NCBI RefSeq assembly: GCF_003019035.1
Contig: NZ_CP027447.1
Direction: 5' to 3' (one strand)
Length of the DNA stretch: 64,000 nucleotides
Source: Escherichia coli
Lineage (GTDB): Bacteria; Pseudomonadota; Gammaproteobacteria; Enterobacterales; Enterobacteriaceae
The notes below the pieces were generated by a model that saw nothing but the letters and a program-made list of their open reading frames with translations, had not been told where the DNA came from and did not search any database. This document shows positions 1-38,100 of this stretch, piece after piece; position 1 is the stretch's first letter; each line of letters begins with the position of its first letter. The translations under genes and the position numbers were made by a program.

Positions 1-1
1 G

Positions 2-634
2 GAGCTGCGCGTTGAAACCATATCCTGCTGGCTGGCCCGCACAATTATTCAGACAAAGCACTATTCCCGCCGTTTTGTGAATAACTCTTACCTCCACCTG
101 GGAGTGTTCAGCGGACGCGATCTGGTTGGCGTTCTCCAGTGGGGATATGCCCTTAACCCCAACTCAGGTCGTCGTGTCGTGCTTGAAACGGATAACCGGG
201 GCTATATGGAGTTGAATCGCATGTGGCTACACGACGACATGCCCCGCAACTCTGAATCACGGGCCATCAGCTACGCGCTGAAAGTTATCAGATTACTGTA
301 TCCGTCAGTGGAGTGGGTTCAGTCCTTTGCTGACGAACGCTGCGGACGCGCAGGCGTTGTGTATCAGGCGTCGAATTTTGATTTTATTGGCAGCCATGAA
401 AGCACGTTCTACGAGCTGGATGGTGAGTGGTATCACGAGATAACGATGAACGCAATTAAGCGCGGTGGACAACGAGGCGTGTATTTACGGGCTAATAAAG
501 AGCGTGCCGTGGTGCACAAATTTAATCAGTATCGCTACATCAGGTTCCTGAACAAGCGAGCAAGGAAGCGACTAAATACTAATCTATTCAGGATCCAACC
601 ATATCCAAAATCAACTCTGACTAGTATCAAATAA
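2..634 (+). CDS. Prophage protein, 5' partial (frame is open from the window start); tentatively Mom-like (GNAT-fold DNA-modification family)
   Basis: Frame open from nt 2 with no upstream stop, so the N-terminus lies outside the window; last large rightward ORF before the Mu-type end, which is where mom sits in Mu. Family assignment is from memory only. Confidence 0.35.
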
Positions 635-769
635 CTTATTTATTCCTGCTGAAAAGCAGCTCCTCATGGCATAAAATTGTTCACGTGAGTTTAAAATGAC
701 CAAATGGCAGTACAGTATTTGGTCATTTTATGGGGTGAATTTTAAAGTCAAAACGATGGTAAGGTGCAT

Positions 770-1105
770 ATGAAAAAAATACTCATAGCAGTACTACTTT
801 GCTTTGGTGTTCTTTCTGCTAATCAGGCAATAGCGGCTGTTACCTTAAGCGGTAAGTATCCTGCATGCATATCTGCTAATGAATTCGAGCGATTAAGCTC
901 AATTTTGCAACACGAAGATCAAGAGGCGTTTGAAGAGATCTTTAAGACATCATGCTTTATGCCTAAAAAGGGGGTTAAAGTTGATAAAGTTGTTTCTATG
1001 GGGTGGACCAGTGGAGTTGCGCATGTCAAAGTTTATGTAAAAGGCAATCTTTACGATCTTTGGACTAACACCGAAAATCTTCAGTCCGAGAAGGCTGGTA
1101 AATAA
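770..1105 (+). CDS. Small secreted hypothetical protein (about 111 aa) with N-terminal signal peptide; candidate prophage cargo gene
   Basis: ATG at 770 preceded by TAAGG about 7 nt upstream; N-terminus MKKILIAVLLCFGVLSANQAIA is signal-peptide-like; sits between the last phage ORF and the Mu-type end. Confidence 0.5.
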   Translation: MKKILIAVLLCFGVLSANQAIAAVTLSGKYPACISANEFERLSSILQHEDQEAFEEIFKTSCFMPKKGVKVDKVVSMGWTSGVAHVKVYVKGNLYDLWTNTENLQSEKAGK

Positions 1106-1330
1106 CGCTGTAATCAACGTGTAATCACATCTCCTACCAGCTATCGCCTGATAAAGTTAGGTGATAGCTATTTCAATACTCTCTAGTTTCACTGAAAGCA
1201 CGAAACTTAATACCTCCATTCCAGATTGCTTAATAATCGAGCATTTTTATCTTGAATGTTTTTGCGCGCTTTATCAGCCATACCCTAAGTGATCCCCATG
1301 TAATGAATAAAAAGCAGTAATTAATACTGC

Positions 1331-1407
1331 TGTTTCATTTGAAGCGCGAAAGCTAAAGTTTTCGCATTTATCGTGAAACGCTTTCGCGTTTTTCGTGCGC
1401 CGCTTCA
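1331..1407 (+). repeat. Mu attR-like end: three MuA-binding-site-like repeats (R3 1331-1352 inverted, R2 1358-1380, R1 1381-1407)
   Basis: TGTTTCATTTGAAGCGCGAAAG (1331-1352); reverse complements read TTTCACGATAAATGCGAAAAC and TGAAGCGGCGCACGAAAAACGCGAAAG; all share a ...CGAAA... core. Confidence 0.7.
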
Positions 1408-1706
1408 TTCAGGGTGAACGTCCACTCTTTTTGATCGTCAGACGCTTTCCAGCTACTTGCCAGATCGCCTTCAACGTCGGTTGAGCCTTTATCACCGTCC
1501 GTTTTGTACTGAACCAGTCGCTGATAAGACGGGTAGGTCACTGTCCAGTCGTTATTATCAATTGTCACCGCTGGGTCGAGGGTTTGTGGGTCGGCAGCTT
1601 TACCGATCACCAGCATATCTTTCGGTACGGCGGCGTGCGCAACCGGCATTGTTGTGGCAAGGACGATCGCGAGCAATGTAGGACGAAACAAAATCGATCT
1701 CTTCAT
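1368..1706 (-). pseudogene. ddpA: ddpA 5' fragment (D,D-dipeptide periplasmic binding protein), truncated by the prophage insertion
   Basis: Begins MKRSILFRPTLLAIVLATTMPVAHAAVPKDMLVIGKAADPQTLDP... (DdpA N-terminus); frame runs into the Mu end and stops after 12 foreign codons; full DdpA is about 516 aa. Confidence 0.8.
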
Positions 1707-1719
1707 GACAGTTTCCTGA

Positions 1720-2301
1720 TTAACTGGCGTGCTGTGTGCCAGGGGATATAAAACAGGTGAATTGATCAGCGAGTAGTGGGTAACTCGCTGCCTGGGGTAA
1801 TTCGAAGTGCCACCATTCGCTCGGGATACCGACAAAGCCACCGCCAGTCATAATCGCATTCAGCAACAGCCGATTGCGCTGAGCGGCTGGCGGGACGGAA
1901 GGGTGATAAGCATGGGAACGTTCGTGCATTTCATCGAACTCTGCACCCATATCCAGTATGTTCCCGTGCTCATCACGAAGCGTCAGGTCGATCGCTGTGC
2001 CACGGCTGTGATTAGAACCGACCGCCACATCAACAACATATTGCGGGTCTGGGCAGGCTTGCCACAACATCGCCTGTGCTTGTTGTGGGCGATACGCATC
2101 GTAAATCACCAGTTGTAAGCCTGACAGCTGGGCGATACTGATACTTTTCGCCAGCGCAGTAATCGCATCCTTGTGTAACAGACAACGCGCTTGCTGATAA
2201 ATAGCTTTGCCTGTGATGTTATCAGCACAGGCGTATTTCAATTCGATCTCCAGATCAGGGAAGATCACGGCTAAATCAACCAGTTCGGTGGTATCCGACA
2301 T
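1720..2301 (-). CDS. ddpX: D-Ala-D-Ala dipeptidase
   Basis: 193-aa ORF matching E. coli DdpX; 13 nt upstream of the ddpA start. Confidence 0.92.
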   Translation of the reverse strand: MSDTTELVDLAVIFPDLEIELKYACADNITGKAIYQQARCLLHKDAITALAKSISIAQLSGLQLVIYDAYRPQQAQAMLWQACPDPQYVVDVAVGSNHSRGTAIDLTLRDEHGNILDMGAEFDEMHERSHAYHPSVPPAAQRNRLLLNAIMTGGGFVGIPSEWWHFELPQAASYPLLADQFTCFISPGTQHAS

Positions 2302-2558
2302 AAACGGTTCCTGTATAAGACAAAAATTGCTGCGCTTTCCGCTTATGCAGATCTCATGCCACGCCGGGATAAGCGCCAGAATGCTGGCTTAAAGTTATAT
2401 TTTTTAACTTTTGATCAACATTTGTGCATCGTAATGCAGTTTTGGTGCAAGAGGGGAAGTTAAGGAAGGAATCTCCCGGAATCGTAGCTGAAATCACAGT
2501 ATTTAAGTGACAGTGTCACGTTAAAGGAAAACCCGCGAGTGCGGGCGAGAGGAATTTG

Positions 2559-4958
2559 TCAGATTTTCAGCGGTAACACGCTGCTCATCCAGCCTGGAAT
2601 TTCTTCGGCGGGCAGGGGGCGGGAAAAGAAATATCCCTGAATAACGCGACAGTGGATCTTGCGTAGCATCTCAAATTGCTCTTTGGTTTCGACGCCTTCC
2701 GCCACGACGGTTAAATTAAGGCTTTGCCCAATGCTGGTAATGGCTTCAAGTAAGGCAAGGATGCGTTTTTCGGTCAGACAACGATCGACAAAACTTTTGT
2801 CAATTTTGATTTCCGTTACTGGAAGACTGACTAAGCGGGATAATCCGGAAAAGCCCGTGCCAAAATCATCTACCGATAAACCCACGCCCATATCGCGCAG
2901 GATCTGAATGCGTTTAAAGATTTCGGTATCGTGTTCCATCATCATGCTTTCCGTGATTTCCACCGTCAGCTGGTGGCCGTTAATACCCCAGGCTTGCATT
3001 GCATCAGACACCTGATTAGGCAGCTGATTACTGCGAAAGTGCAGCGCCGACAAGTTCACGGATAACGCCGGGATATGAATATTCTGGCTACGCCATTCTG
3101 CTAACTGACGGCAAGCTTCCGCGATGACCCAGCGTCCAATATTTTCGATTTCACCGATCTCTTCTGCGAGAGGAATAAACCGTGAAGGGGGCACATGACC
3201 ATGCAGGGGATCGTGCCAGCGAGCAAGGGCTTCGATGCCGTACAGTTCACCCGTTTCTGCGAAGATTTGTGGCTGGTAAACCAGTTTCAGTTGGTTATTG
3301 CTAATTGCTTCTTTCAGCGCCGCGCCTAAAACCAAACGCTCTTTTACCATTTCGTTCATCGCCGGGCTGAAGAACTGCCAGCCGTTACCGCCATTTTTGC
3401 GAATAAAATCCATTGCATTGTGAGCAGTGGAGAGCAGGTAATCGCGGTTTTTACCCACGTCGTAGCTGATGCCAATGCTCAAGGTGAGCGGGAATGGTTT
3501 ATCGTCAATCATTATCGGCTTGCTGACCACATTCCGTAGCTCATCGGCGATCTGCGTAATGTTACTGACGTCGTTTTCCAGGCTCACGAGGACAAACTGC
3601 GTACCTTCGATACGACAGAGATATTGATCCGGTTTGAGTTTTTCACGAAAGCGATTGACCACTTCCAGCAATGCCTGATCGGCCCACGCATAGCCAAGGC
3701 TATCAATCACATCCTGAATATGGTCAACACCGATGAGATACACCACCGGAGAGACGGCTTTGTCGACCAGGTCATCGAGGTAATTGTGCAGGTTATTGCG
3801 ATTTGGCAGACCGGTCATCGGATCAAATTGGATGAGTTGTTCAATATGCTGACGGCTTTTTTCCTGTTCCAGCGCCAGCGCGGCCATATGCTGGCTAATA
3901 TCTGCCACGCGTTCGATAAAGGCGCTGGTTTCTGCTCCTGACGAGGTTTTAATTTGCAGGATCCCCGCCGGCGCACCATCACGCTGACGAATGGTCGCTG
4001 ACCAGCTTTGCGCATTTTGAACTTCTGCACCGTGCGAAGATGACGCCCAGTGTATCGGCATCCCGTTGCGCAGCGCGAACAGCGAAACATGCGATTCGTT
4101 GAGTACAGATTCGATGTTACGACAAATGATTTCCCCCATTTCATGAAATGGCGGGCTGCTGCACATGGCGGCGAGAATATTGCCTTCAAGCTGGCGGATT
4201 TGCCGTTCTTCGGTGATATCCGAGAAGGTCATTACCAGGTTCTGCAGATGCGCGAGCACGTCATAAACCGGGCTGATAGAGGCTTTAATCCAGATTTTTT
4301 CACCGGTGCGCGTCAACAGCAGAAATTCATCCTGATCGCGGGCGGTTTTCCATAGCAACTGTTGTAAACGAATGCGGTTATCGGCAGGGAATTCAGGAAT
4401 GTTCAGGAGTGTATCGGGCTGCATACCGCTGGCTTCGCTAATGCAGTAACCAAACATTTCGGTAAATGCGCGATTGCACTGCACAATATGGCGTTCCGGA
4501 TCGAGGACAATCACCGGTCGGTCGAGATGGTCAACAGCAATAATCAATTGTCGGGTCTGTTCTTTTTGCGCCATTTCTACGCTGGCATCCCGTACCAGCG
4601 CCAGGTAATAAACTTTCCCCTCGGCGCTCACTTTCGATAGCGCAAAACGGGTCCAGATTTTACTGCCGTCTTTTTTCTCCAGCTGCAGCTCCCGACTCAT
4701 CCCCTCGACGCGCGCTTTACCGCCTTCACGGTTATGACGAATGTATTCAGGATGCGCAGGACGCAAATCCCGCGGAATCAGCATATCAATGTTATTGCCA
4801 ATGACTTCTTCACGTTTGTACCCCCAGAGCTTCTCTGCGGCGGGGTTGAAAAACATCACTTCATCATTTTCGTTAATTAACACCGCGCCCATCATATTTT
4901 GCTCAAGGGCGGGGAAAAAAATGCCATCGGCGGCATTATCCGCATCGGTTAGCTTCAT
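2559..4958 (-). CDS. dosP: Oxygen-sensing c-di-GMP phosphodiesterase (heme PAS + GGDEF-like + EAL)
   Basis: Matches DosP from MKLTDADNAADGIFFPALEQ; the supplied ORF has an 8-codon upstream extension. Confidence 0.92.
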   Translation of the reverse strand: MKLTDADNAADGIFFPALEQNMMGAVLINENDEVMFFNPAAEKLWGYKREEVIGNNIDMLIPRDLRPAHPEYIRHNREGGKARVEGMSRELQLEKKDGSKIWTRFALSKVSAEGKVYYLALVRDASVEMAQKEQTRQLIIAVDHLDRPVIVLDPERHIVQCNRAFTEMFGYCISEASGMQPDTLLNIPEFPADNRIRLQQLLWKTARDQDEFLLLTRTGEKIWIKASISPVYDVLAHLQNLVMTFSDITEERQIRQLEGNILAAMCSSPPFHEMGEIICRNIESVLNESHVSLFALRNGMPIHWASSSHGAEVQNAQSWSATIRQRDGAPAGILQIKTSSGAETSAFIERVADISQHMAALALEQEKSRQHIEQLIQFDPMTGLPNRNNLHNYLDDLVDKAVSPVVYLIGVDHIQDVIDSLGYAWADQALLEVVNRFREKLKPDQYLCRIEGTQFVLVSLENDVSNITQIADELRNVVSKPIMIDDKPFPLTLSIGISYDVGKNRDYLLSTAHNAMDFIRKNGGNGWQFFSPAMNEMVKERLVLGAALKEAISNNQLKLVYQPQIFAETGELYGIEALARWHDPLHGHVPPSRFIPLAEEIGEIENIGRWVIAEACRQLAEWRSQNIHIPALSVNLSALHFRSNQLPNQVSDAMQAWGINGHQLTVEITESMMMEHDTEIFKRIQILRDMGVGLSVDDFGTGFSGLSRLVSLPVTEIKIDKSFVDRCLTEKRILALLEAITSIGQSLNLTVVAEGVETKEQFEMLRKIHCRVIQGYFFSRPLPAEEIPGWMSSVLPLKI

Positions 4959-4982
4959 AATTACCTCTGCATCCTGACGCAT

Positions 4983-6365
4983 CTAAAGACTGGCTTTCCA
5001 GAGTTCAACACGGTTTCTACCTCGTCTTTTGGCGATATACAGAGCTTCATCGGCTATTTGAATGAGGCGCTCATAGTCAGGATGACCATTAAACATGGCG
5101 GCACCGATGGAAAGTGAGAGGGCAATATCTTCGCCGTTTGCGGCTTTCAGTTTGGTTTTCTCCACCCGACTGCGAATACGTTCTGCGGTACGTAACGTTT
5201 CGTTTTCCGAAGCTTCAGTCAAAACAATGATAAATTCATCGCCCCCGTAGCGGAAAACATAATCACTACTGCGGACGTTGTCATAAAAGGCCTGAGAGAC
5301 TTTACGCAGAATTTCATCGCCAGTGTTATGGCCCCACGTATCGTTAATCTCTTTGAATTTATCAACGTCAATAATCAGCACTGACAGCGGTGTACCGGTC
5401 CGGTTGGCATGGGCAATTTCGCGTTTGAAGATCGTCGGCAGGAAACGGCGGTTAAGTAATTTCGTCAGTACATCCATACCGACTTCGTGGCGCGATACTT
5501 CTTCAAACAATTCACGCAACAAGGTAATAATTTGCGATACGGTATTTCTTATCTGTAATAAAAATTTCACCCGTAAACTTCTGTTATTCAAATTCCTGGT
5601 GTTACGCATGGTTTGATTGAAAATACCGTCGAAATCCTGAATCAGACGGGAGATATGGCCCACTTCGGCTATGCCGCTAAAATAATGTCGACCTTTATGG
5701 TTAAACCACAGGCCAAAATCAGCCTGGCTTAAAGGCAAACTACTGCCTAAATCAGAATCCAGCAGGACTTTATAGATAATATCTATTTCCCATGAAAGTA
5801 TTGAGGCTATTTGCCGTTCTTTTTCTTCTTCGGCGTTTTCCAGTAACGAGAAGATACGATAGTTTTCATCTTCCTTTGAGGCACTACTGTCACTAAAGGT
5901 AAACGCGCGGGTCATCACCTCCATAGCGATATCAATACTGTTAATAGAGAAATGGTAGACCTGAAGTTTTTCTGCGGCGGAATAATCCGAAGAGAAGATT
6001 ACCGGATAGAGGATTTTTTTCAGCACCCGAAACCCCATCTCGACAATTTCTACCGGAATTCCTATGCGGGCATGCACTTCCGCGACGGTATGCTGGATTT
6101 GTATTAGCCTTTCGACATCGTCAACCTGGGCAGAAAGCACGTTAATAATCCAGCGTTCCATCGCACTTTTCAACTGCCGCTCAACTTGTTCATTACTCAA
6201 GAATTCTTCGGCATGCGGGTCGATGCGGACAATTCGATAAAACTCAATACTCAGATAATGAGCATGCGCAACGGCAATTTCCGCGGCTTTAGCACGAATG
6301 AGCGGATCTGCTTGTTCGACAAGCCCGGTCCACTCATCTTTCATTCTTTTAAAATACATCTCCAT
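4983..6365 (-). CDS. dosC: Oxygen-sensing diguanylate cyclase (globin sensor + GGDEF)
   Basis: 460 aa, contains RYGGDEF; immediately upstream of dosP on the same strand. Confidence 0.93.
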   Translation of the reverse strand: MEMYFKRMKDEWTGLVEQADPLIRAKAAEIAVAHAHYLSIEFYRIVRIDPHAEEFLSNEQVERQLKSAMERWIINVLSAQVDDVERLIQIQHTVAEVHARIGIPVEIVEMGFRVLKKILYPVIFSSDYSAAEKLQVYHFSINSIDIAMEVMTRAFTFSDSSASKEDENYRIFSLLENAEEEKERQIASILSWEIDIIYKVLLDSDLGSSLPLSQADFGLWFNHKGRHYFSGIAEVGHISRLIQDFDGIFNQTMRNTRNLNNRSLRVKFLLQIRNTVSQIITLLRELFEEVSRHEVGMDVLTKLLNRRFLPTIFKREIAHANRTGTPLSVLIIDVDKFKEINDTWGHNTGDEILRKVSQAFYDNVRSSDYVFRYGGDEFIIVLTEASENETLRTAERIRSRVEKTKLKAANGEDIALSLSIGAAMFNGHPDYERLIQIADEALYIAKRRGRNRVELWKASL

Positions 6366-6689
6366 AATTCACACCCTTATAAGGCTGGGAAAGCAGACGG
6401 AATCAAAACGAAACGCAACGTGCGAGATCGACTAACTGCACCATACTCTCCTGAAATATGAAGATATACTGAAAACAAATAAGCGACTTAGGACAGTTTC
6501 AATCTACGCTACTGTTCTTCAGAAGAGTATAGCCCATCGTAATTATTTTTCGGTGACAGCGAATATCGTATGTTTTTTCATGTTCATACTTTTTTTAGGG
6601 GATTTATGACTGTTTAACTAAGTGTGGTTAATTGCGTAGTTAATTTGACTTAAGTAAGCATGATTACTAGTGGGATATTTCAAGAGGGT

Positions 6690-6719
6690 AACAAGCCGGG
6701 GGGAAAGCACCGGCTTGTT
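6690..6719 (-). terminator. Stem-loop downstream of yddW
   Basis: AACAAGCCGG ... CCGGCTTGTT 10-bp inverted repeat. Confidence 0.5.
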
Positions 6720-6738
6720 ACAAAGTAAGAATGGGAGT

Positions 6739-8058
6739 TTAACTGCCCCAACGACTTTGCAGATAGCTGACCGCTTGTTGAGTCTGTGGCTTATTCAGAT
6801 AGTCCTCACGGAACAAGATTGTGCCGCTAATTTCTGGCACGGCATCGTTAAGATCGAGCTGCTTTTTCAGTTCCGGTACGCCGCCGTTAATCATCCAGTC
6901 TGGCTCTATCTTTGAAGGTTCTCCTACTTTATAGAAGGCGATACCGATATACAGGCGGGTCCTGGTCGGTTTAACGACATCCGCCCACCATTTTGCCAAC
7001 ACGTCATAACGCGCGGCACTCCGTGAGAACGGCCAGTAAATTTGGGGAGCAATGTAATCCAGCAACCCTTGTTCCACCCATCGACGGGTATCAGCGTAGG
7101 ATTCGTCATAGGCTGCCGCGCCTCGGGTATCGGAACCGAGCGGATCGTGTGATCGGTTACGCCACACGCCTGCCGGGCTAACGCCAAATTCGACTTCCGG
7201 CTTAATGCTTTTAATGGTGTGCGATACCTTCGCAATTAACTGCTGAGTATTGTTGCGCCGCCAGTCTGCTTTTGACGCAAATGCGCCGCCGTATTTGCGG
7301 TACGTTTCATTATCATTTAGCCGTGAAGCTGGCGACTCAGTATAGAAATAGTCGTCAAACTGCACGCCATCTACCGGATAGCGGGAAACCACTTCCACAA
7401 CTATTGATGTGATCCAGTCCTGAACCTCAGGTATGCCCGGGTCGAGGACAAAGCGATCGCCGGACGTTCTGATCCAGTCGCGGTGTTGCACATAGACGCT
7501 CGCCGGTTGTTGAGACAGGGTGCTATTCAGTTCCCTGATAGTACCGGGCTTCGTATTAACCGATACGCGATAGGGGTTAAACCATGCGTGTACTTTCATC
7601 CCACGCTTGTGGGCTTCGTCGAGCATAAATTGCAGCGGATCGTAACCCGGATTTTCACCAATCTTACCGGTCATAAGATCGGACCACGGCAAAATTTTCG
7701 ATGGCCACAGGGCGGTACCATCCGGCTTGACCTGGAAAAAGACCGTGTTTATGCCGAGACGTTGCAGATGATCCAGTTTGTCGATCATCGCCTGTTGTTG
7801 TACACGTGCCCGGCTGGCGGGGTTACTAATGTTAACCGAGGATACCGGTGGCCAGTCGAGGCGAGACACCGTGGCCAGCCAGATGCCACGCATCGGTTGT
7901 GACGATTGTTGCGTCGTGGCTGGTGGCTTTGAACCCGCTGGTGGTGTCACCATGGACTCTGGAGGCGTGCTTTTACAACTACACAGTAAAAGTGCCAGTG
8001 CAACCAGTATCGCTGGTCTTCTAATCGCTAATTTCTCGTTTCGGGAGCAGATATCCAT
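6739..8058 (-). CDS. yddW: Lipoprotein YddW (glycoside-hydrolase-like family)
   Basis: 439-aa ORF; N-terminal signal with LLLCSC lipobox-like motif. Confidence 0.88.
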   Translation of the reverse strand: MDICSRNEKLAIRRPAILVALALLLCSCKSTPPESMVTPPAGSKPPATTQQSSQPMRGIWLATVSRLDWPPVSSVNISNPASRARVQQQAMIDKLDHLQRLGINTVFFQVKPDGTALWPSKILPWSDLMTGKIGENPGYDPLQFMLDEAHKRGMKVHAWFNPYRVSVNTKPGTIRELNSTLSQQPASVYVQHRDWIRTSGDRFVLDPGIPEVQDWITSIVVEVVSRYPVDGVQFDDYFYTESPASRLNDNETYRKYGGAFASKADWRRNNTQQLIAKVSHTIKSIKPEVEFGVSPAGVWRNRSHDPLGSDTRGAAAYDESYADTRRWVEQGLLDYIAPQIYWPFSRSAARYDVLAKWWADVVKPTRTRLYIGIAFYKVGEPSKIEPDWMINGGVPELKKQLDLNDAVPEISGTILFREDYLNKPQTQQAVSYLQSRWGS

Positions 8059-22160: not shown

Positions 22161-22922
22161 TCAAATAGCTAAAGCACTCATCGTGTTGTCCGTGTTCATA
22201 CCGGTGTGCCTTTGACAACGGTACTCCTTAGAAACTCTCTTTGGACTGTTGCCGAAATGTTTGCGGAACGCATAAATAAAATAAGATGTACTCGCATAAC
22301 CACATTGTTCGGCAATTTTATTGACTGAACCTTCTACGCGTATCAAATTTTTTGCGTGCTGCATTCTGGCATCTAAAAGAATCTGTGAGAATGTCGTTTG
22401 CTCTTGCTTTAGTTTTTTCTTCAACAGGCTTTCACTGATGTACAGGCAGTCACAAATATCTTTCAGCTTCCATGGGTGCGCCAGCTTCATGTTGACAATA
22501 TTTCTCACTTTCCCGGAAACGGATAGCACACCGTTAGTTAATAGTGTAATGAAACCTTTGCATGCGGCAAAAATAGACAGGCAAGAAAAAAGCAAAAGTT
22601 CTGAAAAATTATGATGATTGCGTTCTTCCGAGTTGAGATAAGCAATCATTTCATTAAGCAATCCAGTCGGTACATTTGAAGCACGTAAAAACTTCGCAGG
22701 AACAGGCACCGTCACTGTCTGGATGTTAGTGCATTGTAGATATTTTTTAATGGTATTTTCATTAAATCCGATTTCTTTAAAATGCCGCTCATAAGGTTCA
22801 AAATGTGTACGAACAGCGTTATCTACCATCAGGATCTCGCCGTCAGAGAAGGCGTAATCTTTATCTAAAATGTTAGCGTTGAAAGCATGATGAATAAATA
22901 TAACAGAACAAACGAGCGACAT
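22161..22922 (-). CDS. ydeO: AraC-family acid-resistance regulator
   Basis: 253-aa ORF with C-terminal AraC-type HTH; downstream of safA. Confidence 0.9.
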   Translation of the reverse strand: MSLVCSVIFIHHAFNANILDKDYAFSDGEILMVDNAVRTHFEPYERHFKEIGFNENTIKKYLQCTNIQTVTVPVPAKFLRASNVPTGLLNEMIAYLNSEERNHHNFSELLLFSCLSIFAACKGFITLLTNGVLSVSGKVRNIVNMKLAHPWKLKDICDCLYISESLLKKKLKQEQTTFSQILLDARMQHAKNLIRVEGSVNKIAEQCGYASTSYFIYAFRKHFGNSPKRVSKEYRCQRHTGMNTDNTMSALAI

Positions 22923-35182: not shown

Positions 35183-38100
35183 TTACCAGCTATATTTCAC
35201 ACCCAGCATGCCCTGAGTATCGCTATAGCCTTTATCACCTAGTTGCACACCGACATTCCCCCACAGGCTAAGGTTGTTATTTACTTTCGCCTCAACCCCG
35301 GTACGTACTTCACCGAGATTACGCGCACCATCACGGCTTACGTTTTGACCATTCATCTTCACGGCGTAGACTTTGCTGTTGTTGATCCAGTTCGCTTCAA
35401 TGTAAGGCTGGAACTCACGCTGTTTACCATTGTCACGCTGGTGATGACTGTTCTGGTAGGTTTTCACCCCAAGTCGTGTTTGCACGTTTCCGTCTCCTTC
35501 CGTTTCAATGCGTGTTCCGTCTTTCCGGGTATGGTCAGAATCTTTCACACCCATCCAGGTGATTTGTACCTGTGGCTGGACGTACCAGGTATTCAGCGTC
35601 CCTTCGCTGCCGCTAAATGTTCCCGCTTCAAAGGTATACCCACCCTCAACAGAGGCCGTCACACCGCGAGAATCATAGTCGTCAGCAGAACGGTTATCGG
35701 AACTGACGCTGTTATCAAACCAGTTATACAGCGCCCAGCTGTCAACATAAGCGCCGGTCTTATTCGCATCGTTCTGATACCAGGTCGCGTACAGTCCTGC
35801 GCTGTAACCGCTGATGCGCCCATCCGATTTATAACCCACATGATTACTCTGAGTATTACTGTGCTGATTGGCATAGCCTGCCATCACGCCGAGATGCCAG
35901 CGATCCTGCGCGTTGCTACTCCACTGCGCCAAATCGCCGCCTAGCTGCAATACATAGCGGTTAGCCTGAGTATTTAGCTGACCATCACCGGTCCTGAAAC
36001 GTTCGTGCCCTCCGACATGACGCATCCATATACTGGTTGCCGAATCCTGAACTCGCAGTGAATCTGTATACTGCGGCTCACCCAGACGGTCGTGTAAGCG
36101 ATGGCTAAACAGCGAGTTGGCTGCGGCAATGTTGCTGATATAGCTTCCGGCCTCCGGGCGATAAACTGATGGGCCTTCCGGATCCACAACAGGGGGATTA
36201 TTGATGGGATCGGGTGTATCCGCTGGCGTTACGCCGTCCCATTTACTGGTCAGATACCAGTTTTTCTCGTCATTCCCCTTCCCTTTAGCCAGCGTGTAGA
36301 CGTAAGCCCCAGCTTCGACAGTTCCGGTGGTCAGCGCGAAGTTACCTGCAGAATTACCGCCAACCTCAATGAGTTCAATACCGTTGACCGTTTGTGCACC
36401 GACGCCGCCAATGTTATTAACCCGAACGCGGGTATTGCCCTGCGTATCACCTTTTACGTTCATTTTATCCGTGGGGGAATTATCGCTACCCAGCGTCGCG
36501 TTGAACGTCATCAGGCCATTGTTTCCGGTATAGTTACCGTTAACGGTCAGTACATTCCCCGGTTTCCCCCCTTCGCTGTTCATTTGAACCGTGCCACCAT
36601 TCTCCAGGTTACCGCCGACAGTGGTTTTAGCGACACGCAGTGTCCCCCCAGGCATAACGTTCACATCACCTGCAGTGGTGACATTTCCCGACATCACACC
36701 GCTGTTATGGATATTAATGTGCTGACTTGCCATATTAATGGCAGAGTCGGAACCGAAAGCAATTTCACCACCCACGATATCCGTCGTACCCTGGTACGCC
36801 GCGGAATCGTTGTTAAGAGTCAGGATCCCGGACCCCAGTTTTGTCACACCGCCGCTACCGGTGATACTGTGCGTCATCGCCCAGCTACGCTCAGTGGAGA
36901 TGGTGAGCAGGCCATTATTGATAACGGAAGCATCACCCAGGTTTTTCTGCTCGTTGACGCTGAGCGCGCTGCCTGTATCAATGTTGAATTGCCCCACAAA
37001 GCGGCTATTATCGCCATCCAGCTCTACGTCTGTCCTGGCGGTTGCGCTCACGATACCCTTCCCGCTTATGCTATTACGCAGTTCGCCGGTCACGTTTTTT
37101 AGCGTTAACAGACCGTCATTGGCAATATTTCCTCTGCCTAACCCCTGCGTATTATCGAGGCTGACTTCCGCATTTGGGCTAACGCTGGTTAACGCATTGT
37201 AGCGTGCATTAAGCCCCTCGATAGCCAGCGTTCCCCCTGTAACATTCAGGTTTCCGCCACCTGTCAGTTCACCCTGACTGATCCCACCTTTATTCACCGT
37301 CAGCGACCCTTCTTTGAACAAAACAGTCGAACCCATCTGCCCGGTGAATGTCTCTACCGTCTGCGTCGATCCATTAAGATCGACGATGGCCGCGTTGCTG
37401 ATGTTCAGTTCCCGGGTGTTGCCCAGCGCGCCATCCGCATCGGTACGTAATGTCCCCATCTGAACGTAGGTTGCCCCCTGATAGTCGTTCTGACCGTTGG
37501 AAAGCGAAACCTGTCGCACCGTATTGATTGCCAGATCCCCTTCACCACCGATTTTTGCCGACATATCGGCCGTTGCGCCATAGGCTCCGCCATGTTCGGC
37601 TAATGTCAGCTTTTGCCCACCATGGATGTTCAGCGCTTTCAGCCCATAGTTAACGTACAAACCATCACCTGGTGCGGTCGTGAGGCGGAATCCATAATCA
37701 CCCTCGGCGACCACCGTTCCGTTTTGCGCAATGTGTAACGTTTTGTCCGCTTCCACCTCGTCGCCCTGTAAATCACGTAACGTTAATGAGCCACCCGACC
37801 CAATAACCGTTTGCGCCTTCACCAGTTGAACGCCGACATGGTTATCATCGTGTTCCAGCAAATTGAGCGTCGTCAGAGGGTTATTCGCCATGGGATCATT
37901 CCACGGTTTAGGCACGTCGATAAGCACGTCGCCCGTCCCGTTTACCTGATAGTTACGGCCTTTCCAGGTGTAGTCACCCGCGCCGACAGCCAGCGTATCG
38001 ACGCTGATATATCCCTCCGCAAGCGTCGCAGCAGGTATATCCGTATCGAAAGTGAGCGTACCGCCATTCATGGCTAGTCCACCAATGGATTGCTCTCCCA

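Follow-up and report, generated by a model that had tools for sequence, protein, structure and literature searches.

Gene Order at the Prophage Right End

The stretch of Escherichia coli DNA analyzed here (64,000 nucleotides of contig NZ_CP027447.1, assembly GCF_003019035.1; hereafter, the window) opens inside the right end of a Mu-type transposable prophage. On the plus strand, it carries the 3′ 633 nt of the gene mom (2–634), a 670-bp segment that is absent from phages Mu and SfMu (604–1273), and the Mu right end proper, attR (1274–1407). Position 1408 begins the E. coli chromosome, where a truncated ddpA is followed by ddpX, dosP, and dosC, all encoded on the minus strand.

The mom frame runs without a stop from the window edge to the TAA codon at 632–634, for a total of 210 residues. 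These correspond to Mom residues 39–241 plus a seven-codon extension, STLTSIK, while the first 38 mom codons and the com gene lie upstream of the window. The full-length protein would thus have 248 residues, against 241 in Mu Mom. Position 1 of the window is equivalent to Mu 35990, the Mu mom gene being located at 35877–36602. An ORF listing assigned the start to a GTG at position 77; however, the true start is an ATG 112 nt upstream of position 1, as seen in a public contig (L014, described below). The original prediction had rightly noted that this ORF begins outside the window. It had also described it as the last large rightward ORF before a Mu-type right end, and here the agreement was partial: the right end is real, but a 111-aa ORF (770–1105, plus strand) intervenes.

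Identification of the Terminal ORF as mom

The original prediction had considered the ORF product a possible Mom-like DNA-modification enzyme and had proposed a profile-HMM search, which might have assigned it to an unrelated family. Instead, the search returned the Pfam family Mom (PF25680) with E = 1.6e-75 and a score of 253.7 bits (cutoff, 27.1 bits), covering model positions 1–202 of 202. The fragment also matched PHROG 1384, "Mom-like DNA modification protein" (E = 1.4e-80), and, in a phmmer search of the PDB, the entry 8BV8, "Methylcarbamoylase mom" (E = 1.2e-137). At the nucleotide level, the mom portion is 97.0% identical to Mu and about 98.3–98.6% identical to SfMu. No NCBIfam model matched the Mom fragment, probably because that library does not include a Mom HMM, and PADLOC gave no match for it either.

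Over the aligned residues 39–241, 200 of 203 positions are identical to Mu Mom. The changes are K232N, K235R, and V236I, plus the seven-residue tail STLTSIK, with no others; the alignment to 8BV8 shows one extra difference, due to the fact that the crystallized protein is an engineered S124A variant. The three substitutions and the tail arise from a divergent stretch at 571–644 (plus strand), recognized by alignment and blastn, which comprises a mom 3′ end of the type found in phage D108 and the first bases past the stop codon.

The residues reported to be essential or important in Mom are R111, S124, D149, R151, H58, Y59, Y159, W48, and W181 (PMC13219725). All of them could be mapped onto the ORF. 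The codons for the essential catalytic residues are conserved within the span 218–340 (R111 at 218–220, S124 at 257–259, D149 at 332–334, and R151 at 338–340, plus strand), as are those for W48 (29–31), H58/Y59 (59–64), Y159 (362–364), and W181 (428–430), also on the plus strand. An HTH-like insertion, formed by Mom residues 175–209, is required for activity, as its deletion abolishes function, and has been proposed to bind DNA (PMC13219725). Its coding region (410–514, plus strand) specifies the same sequence as in Mu.

Two further features attributed to the protein from the letters alone held up. The product was said to be basic, and the fragment indeed has a pI of 10.0, with 33 Lys and Arg residues against 19 Asp and Glu residues in 210 amino acids. 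Its motifs were deemed compatible with a GNAT fold, and the Mom crystal structure does display this fold (8BV8; PMC13219725). The sequence identity to Mu Mom and 8BV8 is enough to assign this fold to the product. Judged by its sequence, the ORF at 2–634 is mom itself, not merely a Mom-like gene. In other words, the initial guess was right, and the finding is an ordinary one, since the gene is already known.

The Upstream Region in Public Contigs

The sequence preceding the window was recovered through exact-protein look-ups, in public assemblies, of the 111-aa ORF product and of a second protein, encoded across the junction between ddpA and the Mu end. This route was needed because none of the complete E. 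coli RefSeq genomes spans the whole junction (from mom through the 111-aa ORF and attR to ddpA), and because the segment 604–1273 had no counterpart among 5,426 complete E. coli genomes, nor among 50,697 phage records, the latter even at blastn sensitivity.

Two contigs with the same Mu::ddpA junction matched the window with one mismatch over 9,927 bp (L014) and none over 5,834 bp (L017). The former reaches 577 bp upstream of position 1 and, in that portion, shows a single mismatch to Mu, located in gin. As for the com-like partner that had been suggested as a check, the contigs with the same insertion do contain com: in L014, it starts at −221 relative to position 1 and encodes a 62-aa protein identical to Mu Com, carrying the PF10122 domain (Zn_ribbon_Com). 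A search for Dam-methylation sites, also suggested at the outset, revealed three clustered GATC sequences upstream of mom, at −330, −312, and −299, as in Mu. Hence, in contigs bearing the same insertion, the com partner and a predicted Dam-sensitive regulatory region are present, and both are the same as in Mu. The lack of a com-like gene upstream, which the original prediction had named as a refuting result, was thus not observed.

Prophage Insertion into ddpA

The attR segment (1274–1407, plus strand) was recognized from its identity to Mu and SfMu and from its MuA sites. Compared with the last 134 bp of these phages, it is 98.5% identical to Mu and 100% identical to SfMu, and it terminates with ...CGCCGCTTCA at position 1407. 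It opens with a leftover Mu-type mom 3′ end, inclusive of the TGA stop (1275–1292). Matches to the MuA-binding consensus provide predicted sites R3 (1336–1352, plus strand), R2 (1359–1375, minus strand), and R1 (1381–1397, minus strand). The whole window contains four such matches, whereas chance alone would give 0.95.

We also noted the remaining match, CATTTGAAGCACGTAAA (22673–22689, plus strand; one mismatch), which is isolated and far from the prophage end. It is probably a chance occurrence.

Alignment to an intact ddpA placed the Mu/host boundary exactly at 1407/1408. In many genomes the alignment starts at 1397, which would render the junction ambiguous, but the comparison with intact ddpA shows that this is a chance partial match and that true ddpA homology starts from 1408. 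The host bases adjoining attR are TTCAG, which fits the NYSRN target preference of Mu.

By this insertion, the prophage knocks out ddpA, which encodes the component that binds the substrate in the D-Ala-D-Ala dipeptide transporter. What is left of ddpA forms an ORF that runs into the Mu end (1368–1706, minus strand; host sequence from 1408, stop codon at 1368–1370). The resulting ddpA–Mu fusion product, 112 aa long, is particular to this insertion, and the exact protein occurs in 57 public assembly blocks; the insertion is therefore common to one clone or lineage. Near-identical prophages (99.8–100% over positions 1–1407) were found at eight different chromosomal sites among the loci shown, two of them being 100% identical to the window over that stretch and the others exhibiting two or three differences. 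The occurrence of the same prophage end at eight sites points to a lineage that may be actively transposing.

A Cargo Gene between mom and attR

Mu and SfMu align to the window only at 1–603 and 1274–1407, thus delimiting the additional 670-bp segment (604–1273, plus strand). The segment begins within the last mom codons, and this is why the C-terminus of the encoded Mom differs from that of Mu. On either side of it, the mom 3′ end occurs in imperfectly repeated form, with one copy, CAACCATATCCAAAA, at 596–610 and the other, CAGCCATACCCTAAGTGA, at 1275–1292, the latter being the Mu-type end with its TGA stop. This arrangement suggests that the cargo may have been acquired by recombination at or near the short mom 3′-end homology.

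The segment contains the 111-aa ORF mentioned above (770–1105, plus strand), hereafter the cargo gene, which is preceded by a putative AAGG ribosome-binding site 5 nt upstream and encodes a protein with a predicted N-terminal signal peptide. Folding of the RNA corresponding to 632–772 yielded a terminator-like hairpin between mom and the cargo gene (693–729, plus strand), with a 13-bp stem, AAAATGACCAAAT / ATTTGGTCATTTT. A second terminator-like hairpin (1139–1169, plus strand), with an 11-bp stem, AGCTATCGCCT / AGGTGATAGCT, followed by ATTTC, was obtained past the cargo ORF by folding 1100–1280. Both stems are perfect or near-perfect. A consensus terminator scan of 560–1420 called neither hairpin; its terminator-like calls all fell within the MuA-site repeats of attR and were treated as repeat artefacts. 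The promoter consensus scan of the same region gave one weak promoter-like site (649–677), and Rfam detected no family in positions 1–8000 of the window.

The cargo protein belongs to no Pfam, PHROG, NCBIfam, or PADLOC family. An StxB match (E = 0.026), returned when the cargo and Mom proteins were searched against NCBIfam and PADLOC, involved the signal peptide only and was discarded as meaningless. The cargo protein and its relatives form about a dozen 90%-identity clusters in Enterobacteriaceae, all annotated as "hypothetical", and share two invariant cysteines. An AlphaFold2 model (overall pLDDT 77.5, about 90 in the mature domain) predicted two helices packed against an SH3-like barrel.

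An exact match to the cargo protein occurs in 926 public assembly blocks. In all eight loci shown, a Mu-like prophage ends with gin–com–mom followed by this ORF, each time at a different chromosomal site. Homologs with 63–70% identity occur in Citrobacter, Kosakonia, and Enterobacter, where each is the final gene of a P2-like prophage and comes after ogr (positions 4001–4321 in each of the loci L018, L021, and L022). In these prophages (P0007, P0004, and P0002) the homologous gene is likewise terminal, at the prophage–host junction, and bracketed by hairpins as in the window, but the phage type is different (P2-like, not Mu-like) and the flanks of the gene are unrelated to those found here. 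When the Mu and P2-like contexts are compared, the coding region alone is conserved, with 71–73% nucleotide identity.

From this comparison, the cargo gene appears to be mobile across temperate phages of unrelated types, settling at a prophage end. Because its homologs end P2-like prophages, we regard its behavior as moron-like, and the predicted hairpin-bracketed layout would be typical of a moron. If expressed from the prophage, the cargo protein could be an undescribed periplasmic factor for lysogenic conversion or superinfection exclusion. The presence of a secreted-protein cargo gene beside mom is the one mildly new point of the locus.

Comparison with Other Mu-like Phages

In phage Mu, the same gene (Mom, NP_050657, Mup55; structure 8BV8) is found in the same place, in the order gin–com–mom–attR, and the shared features include the com overlap, the catalytic residues, the HTH-like insertion, and the GATC/Pmom upstream sequence. 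The window departs from Mu in the three substitutions and seven added residues of Mom, and in the 670 bp that precede attR. Among sequenced phages, none comes closer over the body of mom than Shigella phage SfMu (Mom, YP_009152241), whose right end is also fully identical to ours in the last 134 bp; however, unlike the window, its Mom has the short, Mu-type C-terminus, and attR follows mom with no cargo in between.

The extended, D108-type mom 3′ end is instead shared with D108, PhiR68_1, and the Yersinia phage vB_YpM_3, at approximately 85–89% identity out to position 644, so that the likeness runs about 10 nt past the mom stop. The D108-type layout, too, is as in the window, namely, mom, a small protein with a signal peptide, and attR. 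The details differ, in that the D108 Mom tail reads SSSD in place of STLTSIK, and the D108 cargo is gp57, a 148-aa "D108-specific protein" with a signal peptide (L011, 1370–1816), compared to the 111-aa protein of the window. A relationship between these two cargo proteins was considered and rejected (BLASTP E = 0.18).

In Muvirus genomes, the interval between mom and attR has the look of a site for variable cargo, occupied by gp57 in D108-type phages, by the 111-aa ORF here, and by nothing in Mu and SfMu. The cargo homologs hold an equivalent position in P2-like prophages, and one might speculate that the mom–attR junction is a slot into which small secreted-protein morons are swapped, although we regard this generalization as rather doubtful.

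Probable Activity of the Encoded Mom

The mom gene has been known for more than 40 years, and the structure and chemistry of its product have now been solved. In the account of Silva et al. (2026), Mom acts as a dimer with a GNAT fold and uses Gly-tRNA(Gly) as the donor of glycine, which it attaches to the N6 of adenine in dsDNA, within a loose SASNY context (PMC13219725); the glycylated adenine then rearranges on the base to give 6-NcmdA, which protects from restriction. In vitro, 6-NcmdA was made only with purified Mom, dsDNA, tRNAGly, glycine, GlyRS, and ATP (PMC13219725). This mechanism supersedes a radical model based on acetyl-CoA and Fe (Karambelkar et al. 2020, PMC7261163). As to regulation, mom is subject to the activator C, to Dam and OxyR acting at the promoter, to Fis, and to Com for translation, and it is toxic on overexpression (PMC3378877). 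Its expression is toxic and is limited to late lytic growth (PMC7261163).

Taking the chemistry and the regulation from this literature, and given the gene identity, the intact catalytic residues, and the Mu-like com and regulatory region, we infer that the present copy is functional. The stretch 2–634 very probably belongs to the mom gene of a Muvirus prophage, which entered ddpA by transposition, and the product of this gene would be active, late in the lytic cycle, as a glycyl-transferring Mom. In the lysogen, mom expression would be held off, as the weak Pmom would require the phage late activator C, and OxyR would repress this promoter unless the three upstream GATC sites were Dam-methylated. 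Translation of mom would in turn require Com, the zinc-ribbon protein from the overlapping upstream gene. Late in lytic growth, dimeric GNAT-fold Mom would take glycine from host Gly-tRNA(Gly) and attach it to adenine N6 in the double-stranded DNA of the phage, in the loose SASNY context. The glycyl-dA intermediate would then rearrange on the base to 6-NcmdA (N6-carbamoylmethyl-adenine), blocking many restriction enzymes.

The C-terminal changes could conceivably have made the gene an inactive relic, as could a defect elsewhere in the prophage, whose remaining parts (the C gene, the transposase, and the left end) fall outside the window. The loss of one lysine and the addition of seven residues do affect a basic tail that has been proposed to bind DNA (PMC7261163). 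Nevertheless, the ORF is intact and retains all functional residues, com and the regulatory region are the same as in Mu, and a similar extended tail occurs in D108 and PhiR68_1, which are isolated phages and viable. Furthermore, the same variant is found at many chromosomal sites with 0–3 mismatches per 1,407 bp, suggesting recent transposition, so that we consider a relic very unlikely. The same changes, which are the sole differences from Mu Mom and cluster at the basic C-terminus, might alternatively shift the sequence preference or the efficiency of the enzyme, and hence give a restriction-evasion spectrum unlike that of Mu. This, too, we judge very improbable, because the changed residues are terminal and peripheral, whereas in the regions proposed to bind DNA, namely, the HTH-like insertion and a positively charged cleft, the sequence does not differ from that of Mu.

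A different objection concerns the chemistry, irrespective of the variant. If Mom were a GNAT enzyme dependent on acetyl-CoA and Fe2+/3+, it would carry out a radical methylcarbamoylation and no tRNA-dependent glycyl transfer. Mom was indeed found to bind both acetyl-CoA and iron, with binding mutants losing activity (PMC7261163), and some RefSeq records are still named "Mom family adenine methylcarbamoylation protein". The sequence cannot discriminate between the two models; however, a Gly-tRNAGly-dependent reconstitution without acetyl-CoA or iron has been reported (PMC13219725), and the current RefSeq name is "tRNA(Gly)-dependent adenine aminoacyltransferase Mom". We therefore deem the acetyl-CoA/iron mechanism extremely unlikely, and retain glycyl transfer as the activity of the enzyme encoded here.

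The prediction that the lysogen itself might carry Mom-type adenine modification, and thereby resist some restriction systems, must be revised in one respect. Given that mom is expressed only in the late lytic phase (PMC7261163, PMC3378877), it is the phage DNA that would be modified and not the lysogen chromosome. Beyond a correct annotation, the importance of the gene in this strain is small; still, if the phage were induced, its DNA should bear hypermodified adenines of the Mom type and be refractory to many restriction enzymes.
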